IMG/VR virus record: IMGVR_UViG_2693429779_000006
DNA length: 22,225 nt
DNA from: a virus
Lineage: Duplodnaviria > Heunggongvirae > Uroviricota > Caudoviricetes
Strand: one strand, 5' to 3'
A program made the translations under genes and the position numbers. Shown piece by piece: positions 56-22,183 of this stretch (its first letter is position 1; each line of letters opens with the position of its first letter). The notes under the pieces were generated by a model. That model did not search any database. It was not told the DNA's origin and worked only from the letters and a program-made list of their open reading frames with translations.

Positions 56-850
56 TCATAGAATAGGAGAGTAAATTTCCACCTCAGGGTAATAAGCTCT
101 AAGGTAATTTATAAGACCTTCATAAGCATTAAGAAGAGATATTTTATGTGAAATCAAATCTTGTTCTATTATCAGTGCTTTATCGGATGGTAGCTCATCA
201 TAATTGAAATGACAAAGAAGATTATGATTCGCACCACCAAACACCTGAATGTTTCTATTATCGGAAATCGGCAAATGTCCAGATATGATAAAATCAATAT
301 TTTTATACGAATCAATAAAACTTTGGAAATGACCGTGGAGTAATTTATCATTTAAAGGATAGCTCGCTGGAAAATCCCTTAAAATACTATCAAACTGATC
401 TCCAAAAATAAGAAGATTGATGTGAAAAGAATTAGGTAAAGTTTCAACTAATGAACGTACCCTCGCAAACGGTGTAAAGTGGAAGTAAGCGTTTAAAAAG
501 TCCACATCTGACTGTCTTTTTTTATCTGAAAATAATGTATTATCGGTTGCACCCTGTATATAAGCCTCATGTTCACTTTTGATTTGATGCAATTTTTCTA
601 CTGTATAAGTGAATGGATCTCTATCAACAAGAATATGATCATTTGCACAAAGCAGGATAAGATTTTCATAAGAATTGTCATTTGCTAACAGGTCATCGCC
701 CCTTGGTCCTTTTGGGCTTTTGGCTATTACATGAGCCATTTGTCCGATGTGAACCTGCTCTTTAAAAAGAGAAGTTCGGCAAATATTACATTGCCCAGCG
801 GATAGTCCATACAATTTTTTTATTGCTGCTGTAGTAATTGCATCACTCAT
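56..850 (-). CDS. HNH endonuclease-motif protein with an uncharacterised C-terminal domain of about 170 aa
   Basis: N-terminal 75 aa contain C-N-I-C, then AHVIAKSPKGPRG, then ENLILLCANDH, which fits the HNH/His-Me finger layout of zinc ligands, catalytic His and conserved Asn. AGGA sits 8 nt upstream of the ATG. The C-terminal region has no motif I recognise. Confidence 0.55.
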   Translation of the reverse strand: MSDAITTAAIKKLYGLSAGQCNICRTSLFKEQVHIGQMAHVIAKSPKGPRGDDLLANDNSYENLILLCANDHILVDRDPFTYTVEKLHQIKSEHEAYIQGATDNTLFSDKKRQSDVDFLNAYFHFTPFARVRSLVETLPNSFHINLLIFGDQFDSILRDFPASYPLNDKLLHGHFQSFIDSYKNIDFIISGHLPISDNRNIQVFGGANHNLLCHFNYDELPSDKALIIEQDLISHKISLLNAYEGLINYLRAYYPEVEIYSPIL

Positions 851-2096: not shown

Positions 2097-2531
2097 TCAA
2101 TTCAAGTACTCCAATAGTTCCTGTACTATTCCGAGTAGTCTTTTTTTATCCTTTGCATTTGGTGATCTAATCTTACTCATCATTGCCAGATTCAAACATT
2201 CCGGTTTAAGCATCTGATGAAGGATCAGTATTGCCTCTACAATCATTACCTCTCGCATAGTTGCGAAGCACCATAGAATCGTTTTTGAGTACTGTTCACC
2301 ATTTTCAATTTTGTTTTTAACGACATTGGAACTACTGAGGTACTCACGCCAGCCATTTTCCTTTGAAGTGGGCTTTAGCTTTCTCGCATCCTTAACCCGC
2401 TGATAGATTTGCTTAGCACCGACATAATTAGAACCATCCTCAAACTGAAAGATATAAACGAAACCAGCATATTCACCGGATAACATTTCCTCCTCGCTCC
2501 AATCATCCGAGTATTTCCATTCACTCATCAT
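2097..2531 (-). CDS. GIY-YIG nuclease domain protein
   Basis: AGFVYIFQFEDGSNYVGAKQIYQRVKDAR matches the GIY...YIG...R core, with a downstream acidic residue in MREVMIVEAIL as the candidate catalytic Glu. AGGAA sits 6 nt upstream of the ATG. Confidence 0.55.
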   Translation of the reverse strand: MMSEWKYSDDWSEEEMLSGEYAGFVYIFQFEDGSNYVGAKQIYQRVKDARKLKPTSKENGWREYLSSSNVVKNKIENGEQYSKTILWCFATMREVMIVEAILILHQMLKPECLNLAMMSKIRSPNAKDKKRLLGIVQELLEYLN

Positions 2532-2567: not shown

Positions 2568-3017
2568 ATGAGCGATTTAAAAACACGATTAAAAGAATAT
2601 GAAGGTACTAAAGAGTATCAGGCAAATTTGAAGTACTTCAGAAATGGGAAATTCTATCCATATGCTGATAGTTTAGGATGTAGTACTATTGGATATGGTC
2701 ACTTAATTCAGGCGGGAGAAGATTTTAGTACTGGCATTACTGAAAGCGAAGCAGACAAGTTACTATCTCGCGATTTAGCCAAAACAATTATGCAGGTACA
2801 GACATTAGGGTTAAATCTTCCCGATGACTGGAATGATTTTATTATTATCATGACCTTCCAGTTAGGTATTGGCGGGGTGAAGAAATTCCGTAAGATGTTA
2901 GCAGCCCTGAAAGCACATGATTACCTTGAAGCAATTAAACAGGCTAAGTGTTCTCTATGGTACAGGCAGACACCAAACCGTGTGAATTCCATGATTGCAG
3001 TACTTAAAAACAAATAA
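2568..3017 (+). CDS. GH24 (T4-type) lysozyme, putative endolysin
   Basis: Catalytic-region motifs in T4-lysozyme order: E in KEYEGT, D in PYADSLG, T in CSTIGYGH. No N-terminal hydrophobic signal or SAR segment. This is the only confidently coding plus-strand gene in the window. Confidence 0.8.
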   Translation: MSDLKTRLKEYEGTKEYQANLKYFRNGKFYPYADSLGCSTIGYGHLIQAGEDFSTGITESEADKLLSRDLAKTIMQVQTLGLNLPDDWNDFIIIMTFQLGIGGVKKFRKMLAALKAHDYLEAIKQAKCSLWYRQTPNRVNSMIAVLKNK

Positions 3018-4496: not shown

Positions 4497-8195
<3,699 letters not shown>

Positions 8196-8196
<1 letters not shown>

Positions 8197-8819
8197 TACT
8201 TGTATTTCCAGTTCTGATTTTGATTAACTTGACCTAACAGACTAAAGTACTCATCATTTCTATAGTAAGATTGATATACTGAGTTGGCGGCAATTAATGC
8301 AGGTTGTCTGTCTAATTTCTTATAGACAGAATTCACATATATAGTCATTTCGTTTTGCTTCTGATTTGGATCAGTTACTGCCTGTACATAGTCAATAAAC
8401 CCCGTAAACATGAGCATTGAATCAATTACAGTACTATCATATGGATTGAGAATTACTAACTTGATATTCATCTGTGCATCTTTCAAGAAACCACCAAGGG
8501 CAAGAGCACGAACCGAGGCGTTTACATTGCTAATTTTAAAATTGATAGCATCATTAGACATGCCCTTTTGTTCAGAATATGAAGGTAATGAACCACTGAT
8601 AATGTCGGGGAAACTTATGTACTTATAACCATCCAGATCTATATCAATTAGTGAATCCGTCCAGTGAAAACCATTAGTACCTTTTGGTAGTACATCAAAA
8701 CAAGTAACATTAACGCCTAAGCTCATAATTTCCATTAGTGTTAATCTTGTCTTGGTTGTACCTCTGACTAACTTCCAGTACTTAAGAAGATTAGCATTAG
8801 TATATATACCTGAGTCCAT
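8196..8819 (-). CDS. Minor tail protein (gpL position)
   Basis: Called from position within the tail module and 1-bp overlaps with both neighbours. No diagnostic motif. Confidence 0.35.
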
Positions 8820-9376
8820 TAGATGATATTCTCCGTTGCTTTCAATGTAATATTCATGATGTTCCCAATAGGCAATGAATAATCATTGTCTGGATCTAAT
8901 ACAGCCTCGATCATGAGATTGTTATATTTGAGTGCTTCACTTGCCTGTACTGTATTTTGTAGAGCAGGGAAAATAGTAATTGAAGTACTGGTACGTTCTA
9001 CGATTCGATATAGCTTATTGTGATTGGAAAACTGTACCCACTCACCCACAGCTAATGTGTTAGTACTGATAGGTACAACCATATTACCCGGTTTAGTGAG
9101 AGCAGTAGCGGTTACTGCACCAGTCTGTTTACCGTAATATGTACCTGCAAGCCCCAATGACATAGTGAAAGGTTTGCCCTGTGCATATTGAGCTAAAAAG
9201 CTATTCACTTCATTTAGTGATGCAGGATTAAAATTAAGGGTGAACTGAATTTGATAGTATTGAATTCCAGTACTTCTCATGATACGTTGACCTGTCCATG
9301 TTTGATTAGAATAGATCGGTTCAGTACTTTTAATTTGAAAGTTCGTTACTTTTATTTGATTTGAAAAGGATGCCAT
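8819..9376 (-). CDS. Minor tail protein (distal tail, gpM position)
   Basis: Position downstream of the tape measure gene. GAGGT sits 6 nt upstream of the ATG. Confidence 0.35.
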   Translation of the reverse strand: MASFSNQIKVTNFQIKSTEPIYSNQTWTGQRIMRSTGIQYYQIQFTLNFNPASLNEVNSFLAQYAQGKPFTMSLGLAGTYYGKQTGAVTATALTKPGNMVVPISTNTLAVGEWVQFSNHNKLYRIVERTSTSITIFPALQNTVQASEALKYNNLMIEAVLDPDNDYSLPIGNIMNITLKATENII

Positions 9377-9377
9377 T

Positions 9378-9950
9378 TTGTTACCTCGAATATCTTCTTT
9401 CTTTATTTATTTAAAAACCTCGATTCGTATTTTTTTTAACAGGCTTGATTGGCAGGCTGCATCCGTCATCGTTGCTATGTTGTTATTTGCAGGCCAAATA
9501 GGCTATAACGCATATGATAAATGGAAAGAAAGTTCAGATGATGTTTTTAAGATGCGTGTAATCTTATTGAGCGAAATCAACAATAACCTTTTAGCTCTTG
9601 CTACTGGTGGCGATGAGTCTCAGGTGTTAGGCACATATGAAATATGTATTCCTCTTCCAACTGAAGATACAGAAGCTATTAAAAGAGTAGCAACTGCCGT
9701 TTCTTATTTGCATGATGATGTATATTATTCCCAATTAGAAAAATTAGCATCACTCCCAAAAAAAGAAGTAGATGCCATCGTAAAGAGTTATTATTCATTA
9801 TCGAGATTACGTACTCTTTCAACACAGCTTGCATACAATATTAAATACTCACCACCTAAAGTTAAATTATTGCGGGAAGAGTATTACAATCTCTATACCC
9901 TTTCATCTTCTCTTTCACAATATTTGTCTTATCACACGGAAAATCCCTAA
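9378..9950 (+). CDS. Opposite-strand insert (moron) in the tail operon: hypothetical protein with one predicted N-proximal TM helix
   Basis: A 190-codon open frame on the plus strand fills a 584-bp region that has no minus-strand ORF, in AT-rich DNA where long open frames are unlikely by chance. The track start is TTG; the first ATG is at 9477. TM candidate AASVIVAMLLFAGQIGYNAY. Confidence 0.4.
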   Translation: MLPRISSFFIYLKTSIRIFFNRLDWQAASVIVAMLLFAGQIGYNAYDKWKESSDDVFKMRVILLSEINNNLLALATGGDESQVLGTYEICIPLPTEDTEAIKRVATAVSYLHDDVYYSQLEKLASLPKKEVDAIVKSYYSLSRLRTLSTQLAYNIKYSPPKVKLLREEYYNLYTLSSSLSQYLSYHTENP

Positions 9951-9960
9951 CTGGGCTTTC

Positions 9961-12174
9961 TTATGTATTACGTTTTTGACTACTTCTCACAGCTTGAGAA
10001 ACACTATTGGCGTGTTTCTTAAGCATCTCATTAAATTTCTTGTCATCATCAGCTACATCACCCTGGATGATCAATGGTGCGTTAACGGTAATATCACCTG
10101 AAGTACTTCCACCTTCTTGTTTATCCAAGAATGCTGTTAATTTCTTATTCGCTTCAGGCTGCACCACTCTCTCGCCCTGCTTAAGTACAAATGATTTGTT
10201 GTCATAACTTGCTGGTAGTTCATCTACCCCGCCATGGAACTGACCAGCAGCAGCACCCTTTGCAGTACTAATAATCGACATACCAAGTGAAAGTACTTGT
10301 GCATAGTTTGCCAATGAAGCTGGCCAAGGGGTAGCGAGTGCTTGGGCCAATGCTGACTGAATTGAAAGTACTGTCTGTGCAATGCTTATGCTCTTACTTA
10401 GGGTAAATGCAGCTTGTGCAGCCCCACTACTTTCCCCAAACGCATCAACCATGCCCTGTGATAGTGACTGTGCAGTACTTGAGAAGATACTTAACTGATC
10501 CTGTGCATTCTGGTTACTGATTTGGATGGCCTGTGCATTGTACTTTGCCGTGATCTCAGCTTTACGTTTCTCATAGTCCTCATGGCCTTTCAGCAACAAC
10601 TCATTCTGCTGAAGTTCAGCATTCATAGCATCAGCGTTATCTTTCAACTTCTGATCGGTATCGTTATAGGCTAATGGATTACCACCATTGATACGCTGAT
10701 TCTGTTGCTGTGCCAGATACCCCTTCTGATTGTCATTGAGTAGACCGGAACCAATAAGAGCATTGGTATCTTTCAGACCCTGATTAGGATCTTGATAACC
10801 AACCATTGAATTCAGTAAATCAGTACGTTGTTTAGCACCATATGCAGTAGCGTTCTTTAGCATTTCATCAGGATTGATACCGAGTACTTGAGCACTATCG
10901 GTGATGGTTTTAAGAAGTGCCTTTTGTTGTCTGTCGAACTGCTGTAGACGTACCTGAAAACCATCTTCCCCAACTTGAGCAAGAGCAGCTTCCAGATTAC
11001 GTTGAGCCTGTAGGCGTTTTGCATCTGCCGCCTTTTGTGCCGCTTCTGCCTGTTTACGTTGTTGTTCTAACTTCTTCGCTGCATCTTCAGCTTCTTTTGC
11101 CTGATCAACCCATCCGCCAGTAGGAGCGGTAGCAACCGCAACATCGGACTTTAGGTTGTTTGCCAGTTCTTCTAAACGTGCCTTAGCCTGAGCGAACTCA
11201 TTACCCTTGTTGCCCTTATCATCCATGATGCCAGTATTGAGTGCTGCACCCTGGTAGTTTAATGCCCCTGCTGTACGTAATTTTTCCCAGATATCCAACA
11301 TATCCTGTAGAGAACCCTTGGAAGTTTTAATACGTTCATTCAGATCTTCAAACAAACCTGCCTCGTGAGGTTTTTGATTTGCAGCATCATAGACACTGTT
11401 CATGGCATTAACTAAAGGTGATAGGCCATCAGCAATAGTACCTTTAATGCTGGTAGTAAGTTTCCCAAGGTTTTTATCGAATTCAGCATATTTTTCAGCA
11501 GCATCATTAGTTACTTCAGCATTTTGTGACTGGATATAGGCTGTAGCTTGAGCCTCATTATTGAACTGCTGAAGAGTACTAATCATGTGGCTTGAGTCAC
11601 TGGCTAACGTTTCCATTACGTTAACTATTTCACTCTGTGATTTACCTGCATCACGCATGGCGTAAAAGGTGTGGATCACAGCCTGCATACCACCATCAGC
11701 CTGTTTTAAGTACTTGTTATAGTCCTGTAGGTTGAGTCCATATTCTTTAAGATCATCGGATACACCACCGCCAGCACGAAAAGCATCACCGAGCTTATCC
11801 AAGGTATCCTTGTTGAAATCACCAAACTTATCAATCTCAAGACCGAGGCCACTAAACGCCGCTGATAGCTGTTGTAACTGAACCACGGACAATCCGGTAC
11901 TCTTACTGATCTGGTTCATTTCACGCACATATTCACGTGATGATTCTACTAATGCTGCCAGGCCACCAATACCAATAGCCGCAGCACCCGCGATCCCGGT
12001 CATAGCAGTACCGAACCCGCCAGCCATACCAGTTATTCGGCCTGTGAACTCTTCAACAATGCCACCAGCAGTACTACCAAATTCCTCTAATGATTCAGTA
12101 CCAGACCTTAAAGCACGCTGTAAACCGGAAGAATCACCCGTAATATCTACACGTATTCTATTATTATTTGCCAT
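9961..12174 (-). CDS. Tail tape measure protein
   Basis: 737 aa, directly downstream of the G/GT chaperone pair. Gly/Ala-rich hydrophobic N-proximal segment, long Ala/Gln/Lys-rich helical regions, and a C-terminal region. Length implies a tail of roughly 110 nm at about 0.15 nm per residue. Confidence 0.8.
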   Translation of the reverse strand: MANNNRIRVDITGDSSGLQRALRSGTESLEEFGSTAGGIVEEFTGRITGMAGGFGTAMTGIAGAAAIGIGGLAALVESSREYVREMNQISKSTGLSVVQLQQLSAAFSGLGLEIDKFGDFNKDTLDKLGDAFRAGGGVSDDLKEYGLNLQDYNKYLKQADGGMQAVIHTFYAMRDAGKSQSEIVNVMETLASDSSHMISTLQQFNNEAQATAYIQSQNAEVTNDAAEKYAEFDKNLGKLTTSIKGTIADGLSPLVNAMNSVYDAANQKPHEAGLFEDLNERIKTSKGSLQDMLDIWEKLRTAGALNYQGAALNTGIMDDKGNKGNEFAQAKARLEELANNLKSDVAVATAPTGGWVDQAKEAEDAAKKLEQQRKQAEAAQKAADAKRLQAQRNLEAALAQVGEDGFQVRLQQFDRQQKALLKTITDSAQVLGINPDEMLKNATAYGAKQRTDLLNSMVGYQDPNQGLKDTNALIGSGLLNDNQKGYLAQQQNQRINGGNPLAYNDTDQKLKDNADAMNAELQQNELLLKGHEDYEKRKAEITAKYNAQAIQISNQNAQDQLSIFSSTAQSLSQGMVDAFGESSGAAQAAFTLSKSISIAQTVLSIQSALAQALATPWPASLANYAQVLSLGMSIISTAKGAAAGQFHGGVDELPASYDNKSFVLKQGERVVQPEANKKLTAFLDKQEGGSTSGDITVNAPLIIQGDVADDDKKFNEMLKKHANSVSQAVRSSQKRNT

Positions 12175-12871: not shown

Positions 12872-12903
12872 AAAAAAGGGAAAGTTGAGCACCTTCCCTT
12901 TAT
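12872..12903 (-). terminator. Candidate rho-independent terminator or attenuator after the major tail protein gene
   Basis: Minus-strand RNA AAAGGGAAG-GUGCUCAA-CUUUCCCUUU followed by a U-tract. Its position would let the tail tube gene be expressed more than the downstream genes. Confidence 0.45.
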
Positions 12904-12909
12904 TTATTA

Positions 12910-13383
12910 TTATTCGCCCGATTCTGGTTTTGGAGTAATCAGACCTGAATCAATTGCTTCACCATCAACTGCAAGGGTGAAAGTCTTAGTTACTACTTCA
13001 TCTTTATCACCACCGATAGTGGTACTTGAAACAAAGCAGGTATAAATTACAAAGAAACCTTCTTTTTTAGTTGCATCGGTAAAATAGCTTAGTTTTACCT
13101 GACAACGTTTCTGATCGTCTGCAAGTTGTTCTAAATTCTGATGTACTGCATTATCTGGTAAGTAGTTAACTGCAAGAGAAATGTCCGGGATTGACTTAGT
13201 ACCCAATAGCTTACGATCATAAGCATTATTGAATGTTTTTACGCTAATTACAGTACTTTCAAAGCCTGAAGTACTGAAGGTGTTTACCTCTGGTACTTCT
13301 ACAAAGTCAGTAGCAACTGTTTTACCAGCACTTGAACCTACTTCTACAGTAAGGTTAGCACCGGAAAAAATATCCATAGCCAT
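12910..13383 (-). CDS. Major tail (tube) protein, short form
   Basis: 157 aa immediately upstream of the G/GT chaperones. Shares DIFSG, NTF, VNYLPD, HQ.L and VVTK motifs in the same order with the N-terminus of the 883-aa protein. Confidence 0.6.
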   Translation of the reverse strand: MAMDIFSGANLTVEVGSSAGKTVATDFVEVPEVNTFSTSGFESTVISVKTFNNAYDRKLLGTKSIPDISLAVNYLPDNAVHQNLEQLADDQKRCQVKLSYFTDATKKEGFFVIYTCFVSSTTIGGDKDEVVTKTFTLAVDGEAIDSGLITPKPESGE

Positions 13384-13441
13384 AGTTTTATATCCTTATA
13401 AGAAAATTTTATTGGAGTGAATCCGTTCACCCCGTTTATAT

Positions 13442-16093
13442 TTATTTATTATTTAATAGCTGTTGTACTAAATCTTTTAGCTGATTAATTTCTTCTTGTT
13501 GGGCTTGAATAGCTCCCATCAAGTCCATCACTATTGGATTTAAATCAACACGTGGATGATCACGAGTGACAATCTCCCCTTCTATTTCAACTGTTTCTTC
13601 ATCATGCTTAATGTACTGCGGAGCAGTCAACTCAGCATCTTCGGCGATAACACCAAACCTAACCCTTTCTTGTTCATCATCCTTGTAGATAAACGTTACT
13701 AAATCTTGTGACATTATCCGATCTAATGCTTCAACTGGATTTGCTGGAGTTATGTCTCTTTTAAACTCACGACCTGATGTACCTTGAGCTTGCATTACTA
13801 ACCATCCAAACCATGTTGTACCGTTCCCGCCTCGTACTCTTAAAGTACCACCACCGTCTATCTGAAGCTGAGAGCGATTTGCCCCTGGGTATCTTTGCAT
13901 GTGCAATAAAGGGGAATATTTTTCACTATAGTTAATACCTGAGTCACCTGGCCCTGCATACATACCGTTAAAGGTGATGGTATTGGCATCTGTCGGTCCC
14001 GAAACAGCGGTATTAGTCATCCATCCTGATTGAACATCAGTTAGGATCGTTCCAGTCGGCCCTTTTAGCCCCCATAGTTTATCCTCTGCACCATTTTCAG
14101 AAATAAAAAGGGTGAGATCAGCCTGTCCAGTCTGTCCCATCGTTTTACCAACCCGAAAACCACCAGATATTTCAGTTGATGTACCAATGTTGCATATCGA
14201 ACGAATACGCCCTCCAGTTACATAACTACCAATTGCCGTAGAGGAAGGGGAAGAAGCAATAACATCCCATTGAGGACTAACTGAAGTACGACTACTCAGC
14301 AAGTTTTCAACCCAGCGTTTGGTAGTCGCGTCAGAATCAGAGACAGGATCTCCTGCTAAAGAAGTTGCACCCGTAGGACGAATCGCAGGCCATAACTCAG
14401 CCTGAGTCTTAACACCAGTACCGCCCTGCGGAATTGCTAATGCTTTCCAGCCAGTGAAAGCACCCGCAATATATGTAGCTGAACCCCATTGCCCTCCATC
14501 ATAAACCACTAATGCAGCGGAAGAATCAGCGGATTTAATAGTTGTTAAATTACTACCTTGATTAAAGCGATCCACCTGAAAGTTTAGGCGAGCACTCAAA
14601 GCATCTGTAGCCCCTGTCCCCCCCTGACCTATACCTAAAGCAATCCATCCAGTACCAGTACTTGCACCCCATGCCCCGTTATCCTGAATTCGGATACGGT
14701 TAGTCAGGTCATTACTCATCAGATCGGTGTACGTAGCACCCTGAGTCAAACGGTTCACCTGTAGGTTAGTACGTGCTGTAGAGAGACTGGATAGATCAGA
14801 AAGGTTACTCGCTTTCTTCATGGAAGCGGAATCAAGGGAAGTAATACTGTCAGCTAAAGCCGTTACCTCTGCATCTACTTCATCCATTGAGTAAACAGCA
14901 AGGTTAATACGTGCTTCTTCCACGTCCCCCAGATCACTTAGATTACCTGCTATCGTAAGCTGGGCATCATCTGTAACCTTCCCTAAGCCAACATCAGTAC
15001 TGGTAAGTACTACATCCTCACTGAGTACATGACCGTTGACCATACGTGTATCAGGTACTGAACCTGTATCTTCACTACTCAGTACTACATTTTCACTAAG
15101 TACATGACCGTTCACTGTACGCGTGTCAGGTACTGAACCTGTATCTTCACTACTCAGTACTATATCTTCACTGAGTACATGACCATTAACTGTCCGTGTA
15201 TCTGGTACAGAGCCGGTATCAGTACTGGTAAGTACTACATCCTCACTTAGAGGCTTACCATTCACAGTACGTGTATCAGGTACTGAACCTGTATCTTCAC
15301 TGTTCAGTACTAAATTGGCCGTGAGTGCATGGCCGTTGATGGTACGTGTAAGGGGTACGTATCGCCCGTCCATCTGTGTAGCGGTATATATGCGTGTCCA
15401 GGCGGTTGTAGCGTTCTTTGCATAGATACTTAGAGTACCCGTCTTTGTCATCGCAAGAGAACTTACAGTAGTGCCATCTACAAGCCCTACTCCCATCAGA
15501 TCCGCCCCGGCAGGATTGCCTGCTTGAGATGATGGTACTTTGATGAAGCTGTTACCCGTAGGTACTGATGGTGAGTACTGAGGTACATCCGTAGTGTTCG
15601 AACCTAAACCGTAGTCCCCCTGATAGATTGGCGATAGTGCGTTAATGGTCATTGCACGTGCGATCACATCATGTGGGGCAAAACTGTATGCCTTGGTTAC
15701 TACTGAACCTTTATCACCGTCCAACTTATAAGAGGTGATATAACCATTCACCATCGCATAAGTAATGGTATTTTCATCCTTATTCATCTGGTACTGAATG
15801 ATGATCTGGAAAAGCTGCTGAGACTTAGCGGCATTATCCAAGAATTGATGTGTAGGATCATCAGGTAGGTAGTTAACTACAATATCAAATGGTGCTACTG
15901 ATTTATCAGATAGTAGTACTGTCCTGTAATCACTATCATACGTTTCAAAATTATTTGCTTCTGAATTTATTGTTAAGGTTGGAAAAGTATTAATCTGTTT
16001 AATTACTACATTGCCTGCTCCCTGTGGTGTTCTGTTACCAATATCAGCATTATACTGTACTGATAATTCTCTTCCTGAGAAAATATCACTCAT
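13442..16093 (-). CDS. Chimeric tail protein: tail-tube-like N-domain, tandem tail-fibre repeats and a C-terminal S74-type intramolecular chaperone domain
   Basis: aa 1-150 are paralogous to the 157-aa major tail protein. aa 249-368 hold five 25-aa repeats (TRTVNGHVLSEDVVLSSEDTGSVPD). The C-terminus reads FKRDITP...ALDRIMSQDLVTFIYKDD...RFGVIAEDAELTAP, resembling the self-cleaving chaperone domain of tail fibres and tailspikes, and ends in a coiled coil. Confidence 0.65.
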   Translation of the reverse strand: MSDIFSGRELSVQYNADIGNRTPQGAGNVVIKQINTFPTLTINSEANNFETYDSDYRTVLLSDKSVAPFDIVVNYLPDDPTHQFLDNAAKSQQLFQIIIQYQMNKDENTITYAMVNGYITSYKLDGDKGSVVTKAYSFAPHDVIARAMTINALSPIYQGDYGLGSNTTDVPQYSPSVPTGNSFIKVPSSQAGNPAGADLMGVGLVDGTTVSSLAMTKTGTLSIYAKNATTAWTRIYTATQMDGRYVPLTRTINGHALTANLVLNSEDTGSVPDTRTVNGKPLSEDVVLTSTDTGSVPDTRTVNGHVLSEDIVLSSEDTGSVPDTRTVNGHVLSENVVLSSEDTGSVPDTRMVNGHVLSEDVVLTSTDVGLGKVTDDAQLTIAGNLSDLGDVEEARINLAVYSMDEVDAEVTALADSITSLDSASMKKASNLSDLSSLSTARTNLQVNRLTQGATYTDLMSNDLTNRIRIQDNGAWGASTGTGWIALGIGQGGTGATDALSARLNFQVDRFNQGSNLTTIKSADSSAALVVYDGGQWGSATYIAGAFTGWKALAIPQGGTGVKTQAELWPAIRPTGATSLAGDPVSDSDATTKRWVENLLSSRTSVSPQWDVIASSPSSTAIGSYVTGGRIRSICNIGTSTEISGGFRVGKTMGQTGQADLTLFISENGAEDKLWGLKGPTGTILTDVQSGWMTNTAVSGPTDANTITFNGMYAGPGDSGINYSEKYSPLLHMQRYPGANRSQLQIDGGGTLRVRGGNGTTWFGWLVMQAQGTSGREFKRDITPANPVEALDRIMSQDLVTFIYKDDEQERVRFGVIAEDAELTAPQYIKHDEETVEIEGEIVTRDHPRVDLNPIVMDLMGAIQAQQEEINQLKDLVQQLLNNK
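14990..15349 (-). repeat. Tandem 75-bp coding repeats (about 5 copies) inside the 883-aa gene
   Basis: Near-identical DNA units are visible directly, for example ...tcactgagtacatgaccgtt...acgtgtatcaggtactgaacctgtatcttcactactcagtact..., each encoding one 25-aa repeat. Confidence 0.85.
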
Positions 16094-16110: not shown

Positions 16111-16503
16111 TTATCTTGTCTTTTCCGTAACTTGAATATTTATCGTAAAGGATAGGGAAACCGAGCCAGTTATAGGATCTGTGACAATATCGGATTGTTC
16201 ATAAGAACACGAAAGCATTATTAAACCTGCATCACTGAATGCTGAAGTTTTCTCTTTATCAAAAGTACTAATAATCTGATCATAAGTGATGGATGGGGCT
16301 GTATTACCTGATTCTGGTTTAGGGGAAATCAGATACTGAATTGCAAAGTTACCTGCCCGGCGTTCATTGCTGAAACTTAAACTCGTTAATGAGTAATCAA
16401 AAGCAATTTGTTCAAATACATCAACATCACGTGATACTGTCAGATTCTTAGTAGCATTGATAAGCTGCTTCATCGTATTCCGTACTTTTTGTACTAACAT
16501 CAT
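16111..16503 (-). CDS. Head-tail connector / tail completion protein (gpZ or gpU position)
   Basis: The track ORF (16111..16581) overlaps the upstream gene by 77 bp in another frame. Start is re-set here to the ATG-ATG at 16503, with AGAGGA upstream, 1 bp after the upstream stop. Contains an LISPKPESG segment that recurs at the C-terminus of the 157-aa protein. Confidence 0.4.
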   Translation of the reverse strand: MMLVQKVRNTMKQLINATKNLTVSRDVDVFEQIAFDYSLTSLSFSNERRAGNFAIQYLISPKPESGNTAPSITYDQIISTFDKEKTSAFSDAGLIMLSCSYEQSDIVTDPITGSVSLSFTINIQVTEKTR

Positions 16504-16504
16504 A

Positions 16505-16828
16505 TTAGTAGTCCTCTGCAAATGAAGCACCAGCAGAAGTACGGAAATAGCAATTAACCATACCTGATAGATCATCTTCAATGTTATAGATTGTCTGGTT
16601 TACACCATCAATGATTAGTACTGTACCAATTGCCACGTTTGCGGTTATTAGATCGTCCTTTCTGATTGTTAGGTATGTTTCCACGCTTTCGATAAATCCA
16701 CCTGCCGCCTCAATAGAAACGGGAAGTACTTCTACTATTCCTGTAAAAGTACTTCCCGTACAAGTTTGGATAGACTGACCGAAAGCATTTAGAAACGCAT
16801 CACACTGCGTATCTTTAAATACTCTCAT
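16505..16828 (-). CDS. Head-tail connector / head completion protein (gpFII position)
   Basis: Small ORF directly downstream of the capsid gene. Called from position only. Confidence 0.4.
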   Translation of the reverse strand: MRVFKDTQCDAFLNAFGQSIQTCTGSTFTGIVEVLPVSIEAAGGFIESVETYLTIRKDDLITANVAIGTVLIIDGVNQTIYNIEDDLSGMVNCYFRTSAGASFAEDY

Positions 16829-16841
16829 TATCTAATCCTTA

Positions 16842-22183
<5,342 letters not shown>

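Follow-up and report, generated by a model that had tools for sequence, protein, structure and literature searches.

Can a side fiber be fastened to a long non-contractile phage tail by a copy of the tail-tube protein itself? The question was raised by an ORF of 883 aa (13442-16093, minus strand, ATG start) in the window, by which we mean the whole 22,225-bp stretch of phage DNA that was analyzed. An earlier note had described this ORF and read it as a tube-protein paralogue extended by fiber repeats and an S74 chaperone, and had noted that an ordinary tube gene lies downstream as well. To our knowledge, T5 and Ur-lambda are the only phages for which the fastening of side fibers to such tails has been worked out, in both cases recently, and in both a separate collar surrounds the tube.

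Domains of the 883-aa protein

We compared the tube-fold domain at the N-terminus of the fusion (aa 1-151; 15641-16093; this and all other coding features given here are on the minus strand) with the ordinary major tail (tube) protein of the same phage. The latter is an undecorated protein of 157 aa, encoded by a gene separate from the fusion (12910-13383), and it matched Pfam Phage_tail_3 with an E-value of 2.8e-8 (above the cut-off) and PHROG 158 with an E-value of 5.8e-19. BLASTP aligned residues 3-139 of the fusion with residues 4-138 of the 157-aa protein at 31% identity with 2 gap positions (E = 3e-19), and the motifs DIFSG, NTF, VNYLPD, HQ.L and VVTK, from which the kinship had originally been read, all fell inside this alignment. 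Residues 2-150 of the fusion matched the same family, PHROG 158 (E = 1.3e-16); none of the Pfam tube-protein models reached an E-value of 0.1 with the fusion itself. Structure prediction and comparison with the 157-aa protein indicated that the N-terminal domain aligns and folds like a tube protein, as had been anticipated. The AlphaFold2 model, which spans aa 1-265 at moderate confidence (mean pLDDT of 74), contained the tube fold with its beta-sandwich, one flanking helix and a long hairpin. In tube proteins the long hairpin and the N-terminal arm make the inter-ring contacts, and both were retained in the fusion free of indels, the alignment with the tube protein having only a 2-residue gap. 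The two proteins were also comparably acidic, with a mean net charge of -13 for the tube-like domain and -9 for the tube protein. Identity between the paralogues within the hairpin was about 28% as judged by eye, which equals the overall value and is non-discriminating. The tube-like domain is under purifying selection (dN/dS of 0.09-0.18), and its rate of evolution is about 1.7-fold that of the tube protein (mean pairwise distance of 0.43 vs 0.25). The N-terminal ~150 residues of the fusion are a diverged paralogue of the phage's own tail-tube protein. Assembly of this domain into a hexameric ring around a DNA channel is a candidate property, to which the net charge and the indel-free contact elements point indirectly.

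The tube-fold domain is followed by a flexible linker (aa 152-181; 15551-15640), which had no secondary structure and a pLDDT below 50 at aa 157-163 and 165-175. The linker leads to a small, conserved beta domain, hereafter the mid domain (aa 182-248; 15350-15550), which had five strands with a pLDDT of about 76-86 in the AlphaFold2 model and ends in the fiber-type motif WTRIYT..D.RYV. This was the best-conserved part of the fusion, with a mean pairwise distance of 0.27 as compared to 0.43 for the tube-like domain and a dN/dS of 0.02-0.07. No Pfam or PHROG family covered aa 182-248. When the whole 265-aa model was used as the query, Foldseek aligned it, at high rmsd, with tube proteins bearing a C-terminal FN3/Ig-type domain, a hint that the mid domain may be an FN3/Ig-like appendage.

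Five tandem 25-aa fiber repeats (aa 250-374; 14972-15346) were delimited by regular expression and DNA comparison. They begin at aa 250, 275, 300, 325 and 350 and have the pattern R[TM][IV]NG...DTGSVPDT, and the stretch matched the PHROG tail-fiber/tail-protein families 17472, 23008 and 23426. The fiber shaft and distal region, which is presumably receptor-binding (aa 375-772; 13778-14971), contains two GW.AL.I.QGGTG segments at aa 482-494 (nt 14612-14650) and aa 548-560 (nt 14414-14452) and matched the PHROG tail-fiber families 6921, 5481, 1980 and 10305. By tblastn, matches to the tail fibers of many Escherichia and Salmonella phages were confined to aa ~400-883.

The C-terminus had been said to resemble an S74 intramolecular chaperone, and we located this domain at aa 773-883 (13445-13777). 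Pfam Peptidase_S74 (PF13884) matched aa 774-822 with an E-value of 3.3e-8 and 34.1 bits against a cut-off of 22, and phmmer matched the last ~112 aa to the C-terminus of DT57C LtfB, solved chain 8hqz_d (E = 6.8e-34), both in agreement with the earlier reading. GTSGREFKRD of the fusion was aligned to GTSGIEYKKD of DT57C LtfB, with S773-G-R-E-F-K778 opposite SGIEYK, and an S-x4-K motif was present within the last 170 aa in 81 of 120 homologues. We take Ser773 and Lys778 to be the catalytic pair, by transfer from endosialidase NF and T5 pb1. Self-cleavage is predicted to occur before Ser773, with Lys778 as its partner, after the trimer has folded. A coiled coil follows at the C-terminus.

The DNA-level description in the earlier note (ORF, motifs, repeats, GW segments and S74) was thus accurate in all details, and its order of domains, from tube paralogue through fiber repeats to S74 chaperone, with the ordinary tube gene downstream, was supported by BLASTP, Pfam and PHROG. 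The architecture of the fusion is not attributable to chance.

Gene neighborhood and distribution

The fusion gene has the head-tail joining genes on one side and the tube gene on the other. The 130-aa protein encoded immediately upstream (16111-16503) was identified as the tail terminator by its fold, while sequence methods, Pfam and PHROG among them, gave no match for it; a 156-aa ORF starting from a TTG at 16581 is an over-extension of this gene. Beyond it is a head-tail joining protein of 107 aa of the FII/Hc1-like type (16505-16828), which matched Pfam Phage_attach with an E-value of 3e-4 (below the cut-off) and PHROG 82, 'head closure Hc1', with an E-value of 0.004, and whose E. coli orthologue carries the RefSeq label 'head-tail joining protein'. 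The small number of connector genes had made the tube-like domain itself a candidate for the tail terminator; this was rejected because the upstream gene encodes the terminator by fold. We also identified a distal tail protein of the T5 pb9 type (185 aa; 8819-9376) by its family profile, which matched DT57C 8hqz_H (E = 7.7e-4) and T5 pb9 (E = 0.009), and by a weak Pfam match to DTP-pb9_B-dom. This protein is a candidate neighbor of a ring formed by the fusion. The remaining tail is lambda-like, with a gpA-type terminase, a lambda-family portal and a J-like tip. A search of the window with Pfam, PHROG and NCBIfam gave no match suggestive of a collar protein. A terminator-like hairpin occurs at 12875-12901, 3' of the 157-aa tube gene. 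The ribosome-binding site of the fusion gene is as good as that of the tube gene; it does not suggest a very low copy number, and nothing on copy number follows from the comparison.

Since the two-gene arrangement had been proposed as something to look for in related phages, its recurrence was examined in loci seeded in two ways. The order FII-like protein, terminator, fusion, tube protein and chaperone was found in 43 out of 43 loci seeded with the N-terminal module, and an intact fusion was almost always present in the 48 loci seeded with the terminator as well. About 80 related prophage loci in various Enterobacterales share the order of terminator, tube-fiber fusion and tube protein. When 1.84 billion cluster representatives were queried with aa 1-150 alone, 134 matches were obtained, ~100 of which were proteins of 700-1560 aa that carry the domain at residues 1-147. 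In all of the best 120 full-length homologues, both the tube-like and the mid domain were N-terminal. The fusion is a core gene of a widespread Enterobacterales prophage lineage. An assembly or frameshift artifact was rejected, as intact fusions were present in more than 100 clusters (27-100% identity) and are under purifying selection.

In the relatives the N-terminal module was constant and the distal fiber and chaperone were exchanged for unrelated fiber sequence. In some of them S74 is absent and a separate gene, Tfa-like or another small one, is present, and in others the fiber is split into a tube-anchored proximal protein of 560-698 aa and a second fiber protein. In a single locus (L068), the tube-like domain and the fiber are in separate reading frames. 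When 50,697 phage records were searched by megablast and tblastn for a characterized phage with the module, only DCP80 was found. This record combines the siphovirus module with T4-like genes and looks like a chimeric assembly; a literature search for DCP80 returned only unrelated papers. A DNA search of 5,426 complete E. coli genomes gave 2 matches and is too insensitive for an estimate of frequency.

Comparison with known fiber attachments and tube decorations

In T5, a ring of p140 at the distal end, beside the distal tail protein, anchors the side-fiber collar (PMC10038345). The fusion is similar to p140 in that it is a tube-fold paralogue of the major tube protein and is encoded adjacent to it. 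However, p140 has a tandem double tube domain, forms a pseudo-hexameric trimer and is undecorated, with the p132 collar around it, whereas the fusion has a single tube domain of 150 aa followed by a fiber. The fusion gene is upstream of the tube gene and the p140 gene downstream of its own. The T5/DT57C set consists of three proteins, the tube paralogue p140, the collar p132 (LtfC) and the L-shaped fiber pb1 (LtfA/LtfB), which the fusion would merge. A p140-like site, with the ring interposed between distal tail protein and tube, is a candidate position for the fusion, at which the pb9-like distal tail protein and the distance matrices (below) weakly hint.

The Stf fiber of Ur-lambda has an N-terminal ring-forming domain, linkers of ~10 residues and a trimeric bundle, and is attached at the gpV/gpM junction, where tube and distal tail protein meet (PMC12617516). 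In both Stf and the fusion, a single chain leads from an N-terminal anchor through short, flexible linkers and a trimeric shaft to an exchangeable distal part with a folding helper, and among the relatives of the fusion the swappable distal module typical of Stf was accompanied by such a helper, either S74 or a separate Tfa-like or small ORF. On the other hand, the anchor of Stf is a non-tube fold, a six-strand sheet with a helix, that forms a 12-mer collar round the tube, whereas that of the fusion is a tube fold and presumably forms a ring of the tube. In lambda, stf is located after J and is dispensable, while the fusion gene precedes the tube gene and nearly all members of the lineage have it.

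A tube-fold domain with a C-terminal extension projecting outside the tube has precedent (PMC8718954). The decorated tube proteins (lambda gpV with an Ig-like domain, T5 pb6 with Big_2, SPP1 gp17.1* with FN3 added by frameshift, and lactococcal examples) carry small monomeric domains on the major tube protein or its frameshift product. Unlike these, the fusion is a separate paralogue that bears a fiber of more than 600 residues, probably trimeric, and a self-cleaving chaperone. The earlier view that it exceeds the usual small Ig-like or frameshift decorations was upheld. The tube-initiator rings of T4, gp54 and gp48, also differ from the fusion since they belong to a contractile tail and are without a fiber. 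On the best reading of these comparisons, the fusion would be akin to a single-chain version of T5 p140, p132 and pb1, or of the lambda Stf collar, and the family suggests a third, simpler solution in which the fiber brings its own tube ring. We found no description of a tube-fiber fusion in a literature search that had most subscription-journal papers outside its reach.

Anchoring and position of the fiber

We consider it probable (roughly 60%) that the fusion is a side (lateral) tail fiber and that its tube-fold domain anchors it by being built into the tube. The S74 chaperone would drive trimerization from the C-terminus and then be released by self-cleavage before Ser773. Each trimer would have three tube-fold domains on flexible linkers, and these could then join a hexameric ring in register with the tube, and a full ring of six subunits would carry two trimeric fibers in a 6-to-3 arrangement. 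The fiber would be covalently part of the tail tube, making a collar protein unnecessary. The ring or rings would most probably have the pb9-like distal tail protein on one side and the first ring of 157-aa subunits on the other, a site from which fibers of this length could reach the cell together with the J-like central fiber and bring about a fast, reversible adsorption. This position at the tube/distal-tail-protein junction is a tentative assignment, to which we give somewhat less than an even chance. It is at least as likely as a position at the neck or along the tail and, on precedent and weak evidence, is the one we would favor.

The earlier note had argued for fibers along the tail or at the neck from the slot of the gene between connector and tube genes. 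We found no support for this argument, which is undercut by the T5-like phages, where the tube paralogue p140 is encoded beside the tube gene and its ring is at the tail tip. DT57C, for instance, has the gene order terminator, pb6, p140 homologue, chaperones, tape measure and distal tail protein. Tandem duplication explains the adjacency of the fusion and the tube gene equally well. Fibers on many or all rings, making a bottle-brush tail the adsorption organ, or fibers under the terminator would be unlike any characterized siphophage. With each fiber covalently in a tube ring, receptor binding could then pass mechanically into the tube lattice, which is thought to relay the signal for DNA ejection. 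We regard the two placements together as unlikely. For the neck, the tube-like domains would make the last head-proximal ring or rings under the terminator, with fibers like T4 whiskers or lactococcal neck passage structures that serve first contact or environmental sensing. The position of the fusion gene directly after the terminator gene and before the tube gene speaks for this, as siphophage gene order often mirrors physical order, but T5-like phages combine such an adjacency with a distal ring. Distance matrices of the mid domain and the terminator correlated moderately once the background was removed (partial r of 0.38). The tube-like domain, however, correlated best with the distal tail protein (r of 0.86; partial r of 0.55) and less with the terminator (0.71; 0.18), although these values are confounded by shared ancestry, as an r of 0.87 was obtained for the terminator and the distal tail protein, two proteins that are not in contact, and because of this shared history we take them as a weak hint only. 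A special ring at the end of polymerization would also need an extra mechanism, which a first ring on the initiator would not, and the distal modules, e.g., DT57C LtfB and Dhillonvirus fibers, are receptor-binding side fibers at the cell surface. Neck fibers therefore appear decidedly improbable to us.

We give a similarly low rating to a fusion that co-polymerizes with the 157-aa protein along the tube, in the manner of SPP1 gp17.1* and the lactococcal extensions, and so makes a first contact more likely. In its favor are the preserved N-terminal arm, hairpin and acidic character, a ribosome-binding site equal in strength to the one of the tube gene, and the precedent of C-terminal extensions on a fraction of tube subunits (PMC8718954). 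Against it, the paralogues share only 31% identity and the tube-like domain is the faster-evolving of the two (0.43 vs 0.25), whereas a subunit of the same lattice should be constrained like the tube protein; the faster evolution is a hint that a low-copy, specialized ring fits better than a lattice co-polymer. Trimeric fibers would also need three neighboring fusion subunits, which random incorporation would rarely provide. The known fibers of more than 600 residues with self-cleaving chaperones are low-copy receptor binders, which again counts against co-polymerization. A tube-like domain outside the tube wall, either docked externally or acting in assembly only, for instance as a mimic with the tape measure-chaperone complex or the terminator as its binding partner, with the fiber held by, e.g., the mid domain, would agree with the mid domain rather than the tube-like domain being the most conserved and with the separate frames of L068. 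This we consider very unlikely, since the complete tube fold, with its hairpin, arm and acidic charge, is under purifying selection family-wide, every known tail protein of tube fold (tube, distal tail protein, hub, p140 and gp54) lines the central channel, and L068 is a single case that a sequencing frameshift would explain. Least probable of all is a reversal of roles, with the 883-aa protein as the major tube subunit and the 157-aa protein as a specialized minor ring. Both proteins have the tube fold and good translation signals, but the 157-aa protein matches curated tube families above threshold, is the more conserved and is encoded by a gene with a terminator-like hairpin typical of a highly expressed gene, and a tail with about 190 copies of a chain of 883 aa would come at an extraordinary cost.

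The fusion had also been suspected to represent an unusual adsorption apparatus. This was correct insofar as the way of anchoring the fibers is undescribed, but the apparatus is not rare, being encoded by a core gene of a widespread prophage lineage. If confirmed, the side fiber anchored by its own tube ring would be a new building principle for tail architecture and would show tube-gene duplication to be a route to an attachment site. For phage engineers, the protein would be a compact, self-anchoring fiber cassette with a constant N-terminal module of 250 residues and a swappable distal part. Relatives of the fusion are currently labelled 'tail fiber domain-containing protein' or 'pyocin knob domain-containing S74 family peptidase'; confirmation would correct the annotation of hundreds of enterobacterial prophage proteins, and the neighboring 130-aa 'hypothetical protein' would become a tail terminator.

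Domain composition of the tube-fibre fusion and its prophage setting

The window takes in the late region of a siphovirus-type prophage, with every structural gene on the minus strand. First comes the gene for a large terminase of gpA type (20684-22144), truncated where the window ends. Genes for a 176-aa protein and for a portal of the lambda family (18634-20142) follow, then one in which prohead protease and HK97 capsid protein are fused (16842-18686). An FII/Hc1-like joining protein of 107 aa (16505-16828) and a small protein (16111-16503) are encoded ahead of the 883-aa target (13442-16093). Beyond the target lie genes for the tube protein (157 aa, 12910-13383), two chaperone-type proteins, the tape measure protein (737 aa, 9961-12174), a distal tail protein of pb9 type (185 aa, 8819-9376), L- and K-like proteins and a J-like tip protein of 1100 aa (4497-7799). 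The lysis genes come last. Besides the target, the only long fibre gene in the window was that of the J-like tip protein. We found no DNA-level relative of the region among deposited phage genomes; a protein identical to the target is on record from Shigella sonnei.

Every element that the earlier note had listed for the 883-aa protein was present. Residues 3-139 aligned with residues 4-138 of the tube protein at 31% identity with a single 2-residue gap (E 3e-19). The 157-aa protein exceeded the Pfam Phage_tail_3 threshold, and both proteins matched PHROG 158, 'major tail protein'. The five 25-residue repeats begin at residues 250, 275, 300, 325 and 350, and the two GW.AL.I.QGGTG segments at residues 482 and 548. 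The suggested S74 C-terminus was borne out by a Pfam Peptidase_S74 match at residues 774-822, above the gathering score. The last ~112 residues matched the C-terminus of LtfB, a solved fibre of phage DT57C (phmmer E 6.8e-34), where SGIEYK lies opposite the stretch with Ser773 and Lys778 (SGREFK). Profile and motif assign the protein to the S74 chaperone family.

An AlphaFold2 model of residues 1-265, generated with 21 aligned sequences and of moderate confidence (mean pLDDT 74), consisted of a beta-sandwich with one helix (the tube-like domain, residues 11-151), a segment without structure (residues 157-175, pLDDT <50) and a five-strand beta domain (the mid domain, residues 182-237). The R4C, GTA and monocin tube proteins were named in the structure comparison of this module. 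The tube-like domain belongs to the tube-fold superfamily by both sequence and fold. Its mean net charge over the family, -13, makes it strongly acidic, a character that the tube protein shares (-9). Foldseek against viral models aligned the full 265 residues with tube proteins bearing a C-terminal FN3/Ig-type domain, so the modelled mid domain may be such an appendage.

The upstream neighbour of the fusion, a 130-aa protein (16111-16503, minus strand) labelled 'hypothetical protein' in public records, has the tail terminator fold. A 156-aa ORF with a TTG start (16111-16581, minus strand) was a mechanical listing overlapping the upstream gene, the real gene being that for 130 aa. An ordinary terminator and an ordinary tube protein are thus both encoded by the phage, and the fibre's tube-like domain comes on top of them as a third module of ring type.

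Conservation and variation of the locus

The tube-like and mid domains were N-terminal in all of the 120 best full-protein homologues (497-1286 aa, the shortest being partial records), whose hosts include Escherichia, Shigella, Enterobacter, Citrobacter, Salmonella, Klebsiella, Cedecea, Kosakonia, Erwinia and others. Searching residues 1-150 alone in 1.84 billion cluster representatives gave 134 matches; ~100 were proteins of 700-1560 aa with the domain at residues 1-147, and only ~10 were full-length ~150-aa tube proteins. Distant fusion members came from Leclercia, Serratia, Edwardsiella, Yersinia and Rouxiella and were named 'tail fiber protein' or 'pyocin knob domain-containing S74 family peptidase' at source. 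The two-gene arrangement recurred in relatives: the order FII-like protein, terminator, fusion, ~150-aa tube protein and chaperone was found in 43/43 loci retrieved with the N-terminal module as query. An independent search with the terminator yielded 48 loci, and in these the fusion was intact wherever the contig permitted, except in L068 (frameshifted, 168 + 1144 aa, 6405-10308), L054 (cut at 367 aa), L090 (N-terminally shortened, 641 aa) and L060 (a truncated remnant). In a RefSeq E. coli example the fusion is a 'tail fiber domain-containing protein' adjoining a 'phage tail tube protein', and the terminator bears the label 'hypothetical protein'. The truncated Shigella sonnei homologue P0002 (622 aa) carries a ~59-residue internal duplication in the shaft (residues ~425-483); this and the L068 split could be assembly errors or genuine decay or variation.

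Across the window and 26 loci, the tube-like domain was the most divergent (mean pairwise distance 0.43), ahead of the mid domain (0.27) and the tube protein (0.25). dN/dS ranged from 0.09 to 0.18 in the tube-like domain and from 0.02 to 0.07 in the mid domain. Both domains are thus functional, although the tube-like one tolerates more change than the genuine tube protein does. Past residue ~250 the fusion proteins are mosaic: some end in S74, whereas in others S74 is missing and the next gene is a 75-aa ORF or a Tfa-like ORF of 125 aa. These mosaic distal parts match the behaviour of host-range fibres. In a Klebsiella/Enterobacter branch, as in DCP80, the tube-anchored protein is reduced to 560-698 aa and precedes a second large fibre/tail protein, of 745-940 aa in L045 (9001-13505) and L001 (8763-13136); these two-gene loci suggest jointed or branched fibres. 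L001 and L047 correspond to GenBank PQ671644 (Escherichia phage DCP80, 140,978 bp, filed as Straboviridae). That record begins with a ~26-kb siphovirus-type structural module including a tube-fibre fusion and continues with T4-like genes containing two inverted rIIA copies; it looks like a chimeric assembly.

Proposed anchoring of the fibre and possible position of its ring

The fibre begins with a tube fold, continues through a flexible linker and a conserved proximal domain, and ends in an S74 chaperone predicted to be self-cleaving. S74 chaperones such as those of T5 pb1 and endosialidase NF trimerise and then cleave themselves; on this basis the fibre would trimerise at its C-terminus and then be cut before Ser773. 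The known tail proteins of the tube fold all line the central channel (PMC10038345, plus our fold comparison), which suggests that the three N-terminal domains of the trimer would join a hexameric ring stacked within the tube, at two fibres per ring. In T5, the tube paralogue p140 forms a ring at the junction of tube and distal tail protein, and the p132 collar, which holds the side fibre pb1, wraps around it (PMC10038345). At the same junction in Ur-lambda, twelve N-terminal domains of the side tail fibre Stf lead through ~10-residue linkers to four trimeric bundles (PMC12617516). By analogy, the 883-aa protein looks like these two anchoring solutions merged in one chain. It is not of the p140 type, since p140 has a double tube domain whereas the fusion has a single, decorated one and no evident collar; nor of the Stf collar type, because its anchor has a different fold; nor a decorated major tube protein, being instead a separate paralogue that bears a presumably trimeric fibre. 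A known function (side fibre) and known parts are joined in an undescribed way, and within an incomplete coverage of the literature we found no published account of a tail fibre fused to a tube-fold domain. Such a joining implies a new anchoring principle.

We tentatively place the fusion ring at the distal end of the tail (probability roughly 0.4). This position is favoured by the T5 and Ur-lambda precedents, by the pb9-type distal tail protein, by the LtfB-type fibre end and by the distance-matrix correlation of the tube-like domain, which was best with the distal tail protein (r 0.86 vs 0.71 for the terminator), weak evidence since unrelated pairs also correlate strongly. The earlier note had argued from gene position for fibres at the neck or along the whole tail. 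However, the DT57C p140 homologue is also encoded directly beside the tube gene, which undercuts that argument. A neck ring carrying fibres is unlikely, and rings distributed along the tail are equally so; the remaining probability falls to less likely options.

Other features of the window

The capsid gene (16842-18686, minus strand) joins a Peptidase_S78 prohead protease and an HK97-type major capsid protein in a single 614-aa ORF, a fusion also present in Xanthomonas, Vibrio VP882 and Burkholderia phages. Directly 3' of the tube gene is a strong terminator-like hairpin followed through by a T-run (12875-12901, minus strand), and an 8-bp hairpin, GGGGTGAA-CGGA-TTCACTCC (13404-13423, minus strand), lies within the 58 nt that separate the fusion gene from the tube gene; jointly they might set the tube protein:chaperone expression ratio.

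An ORF of 190 aa with a hydrophobic N-terminus lies on the opposite strand (9378-9950, plus strand), in the gap that separates the tape measure gene from the distal tail protein gene. This gap is ~60 nt in roughly half of the related loci and 585-890 nt in the others, a variability that indicates a hotspot for inserted cargo genes. The ORF had no match in Pfam or PADLOC and might be a superinfection-exclusion or defence gene. The first ~105 residues of a 264-aa protein (56-850, minus strand) matched HNH nuclease effectors (PADLOC E 4e-23) of CBASS (SAVED-HNH) and of the candidate defence system PDC-M68A; the protein is probably defence cargo carried by the prophage at the close of the late region. 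A SegE-like GIY-YIG homing endonuclease (2097-2531, minus strand; Pfam E 2e-16) adjoins the lysozyme gene on the opposite strand (2568-3017, plus strand).
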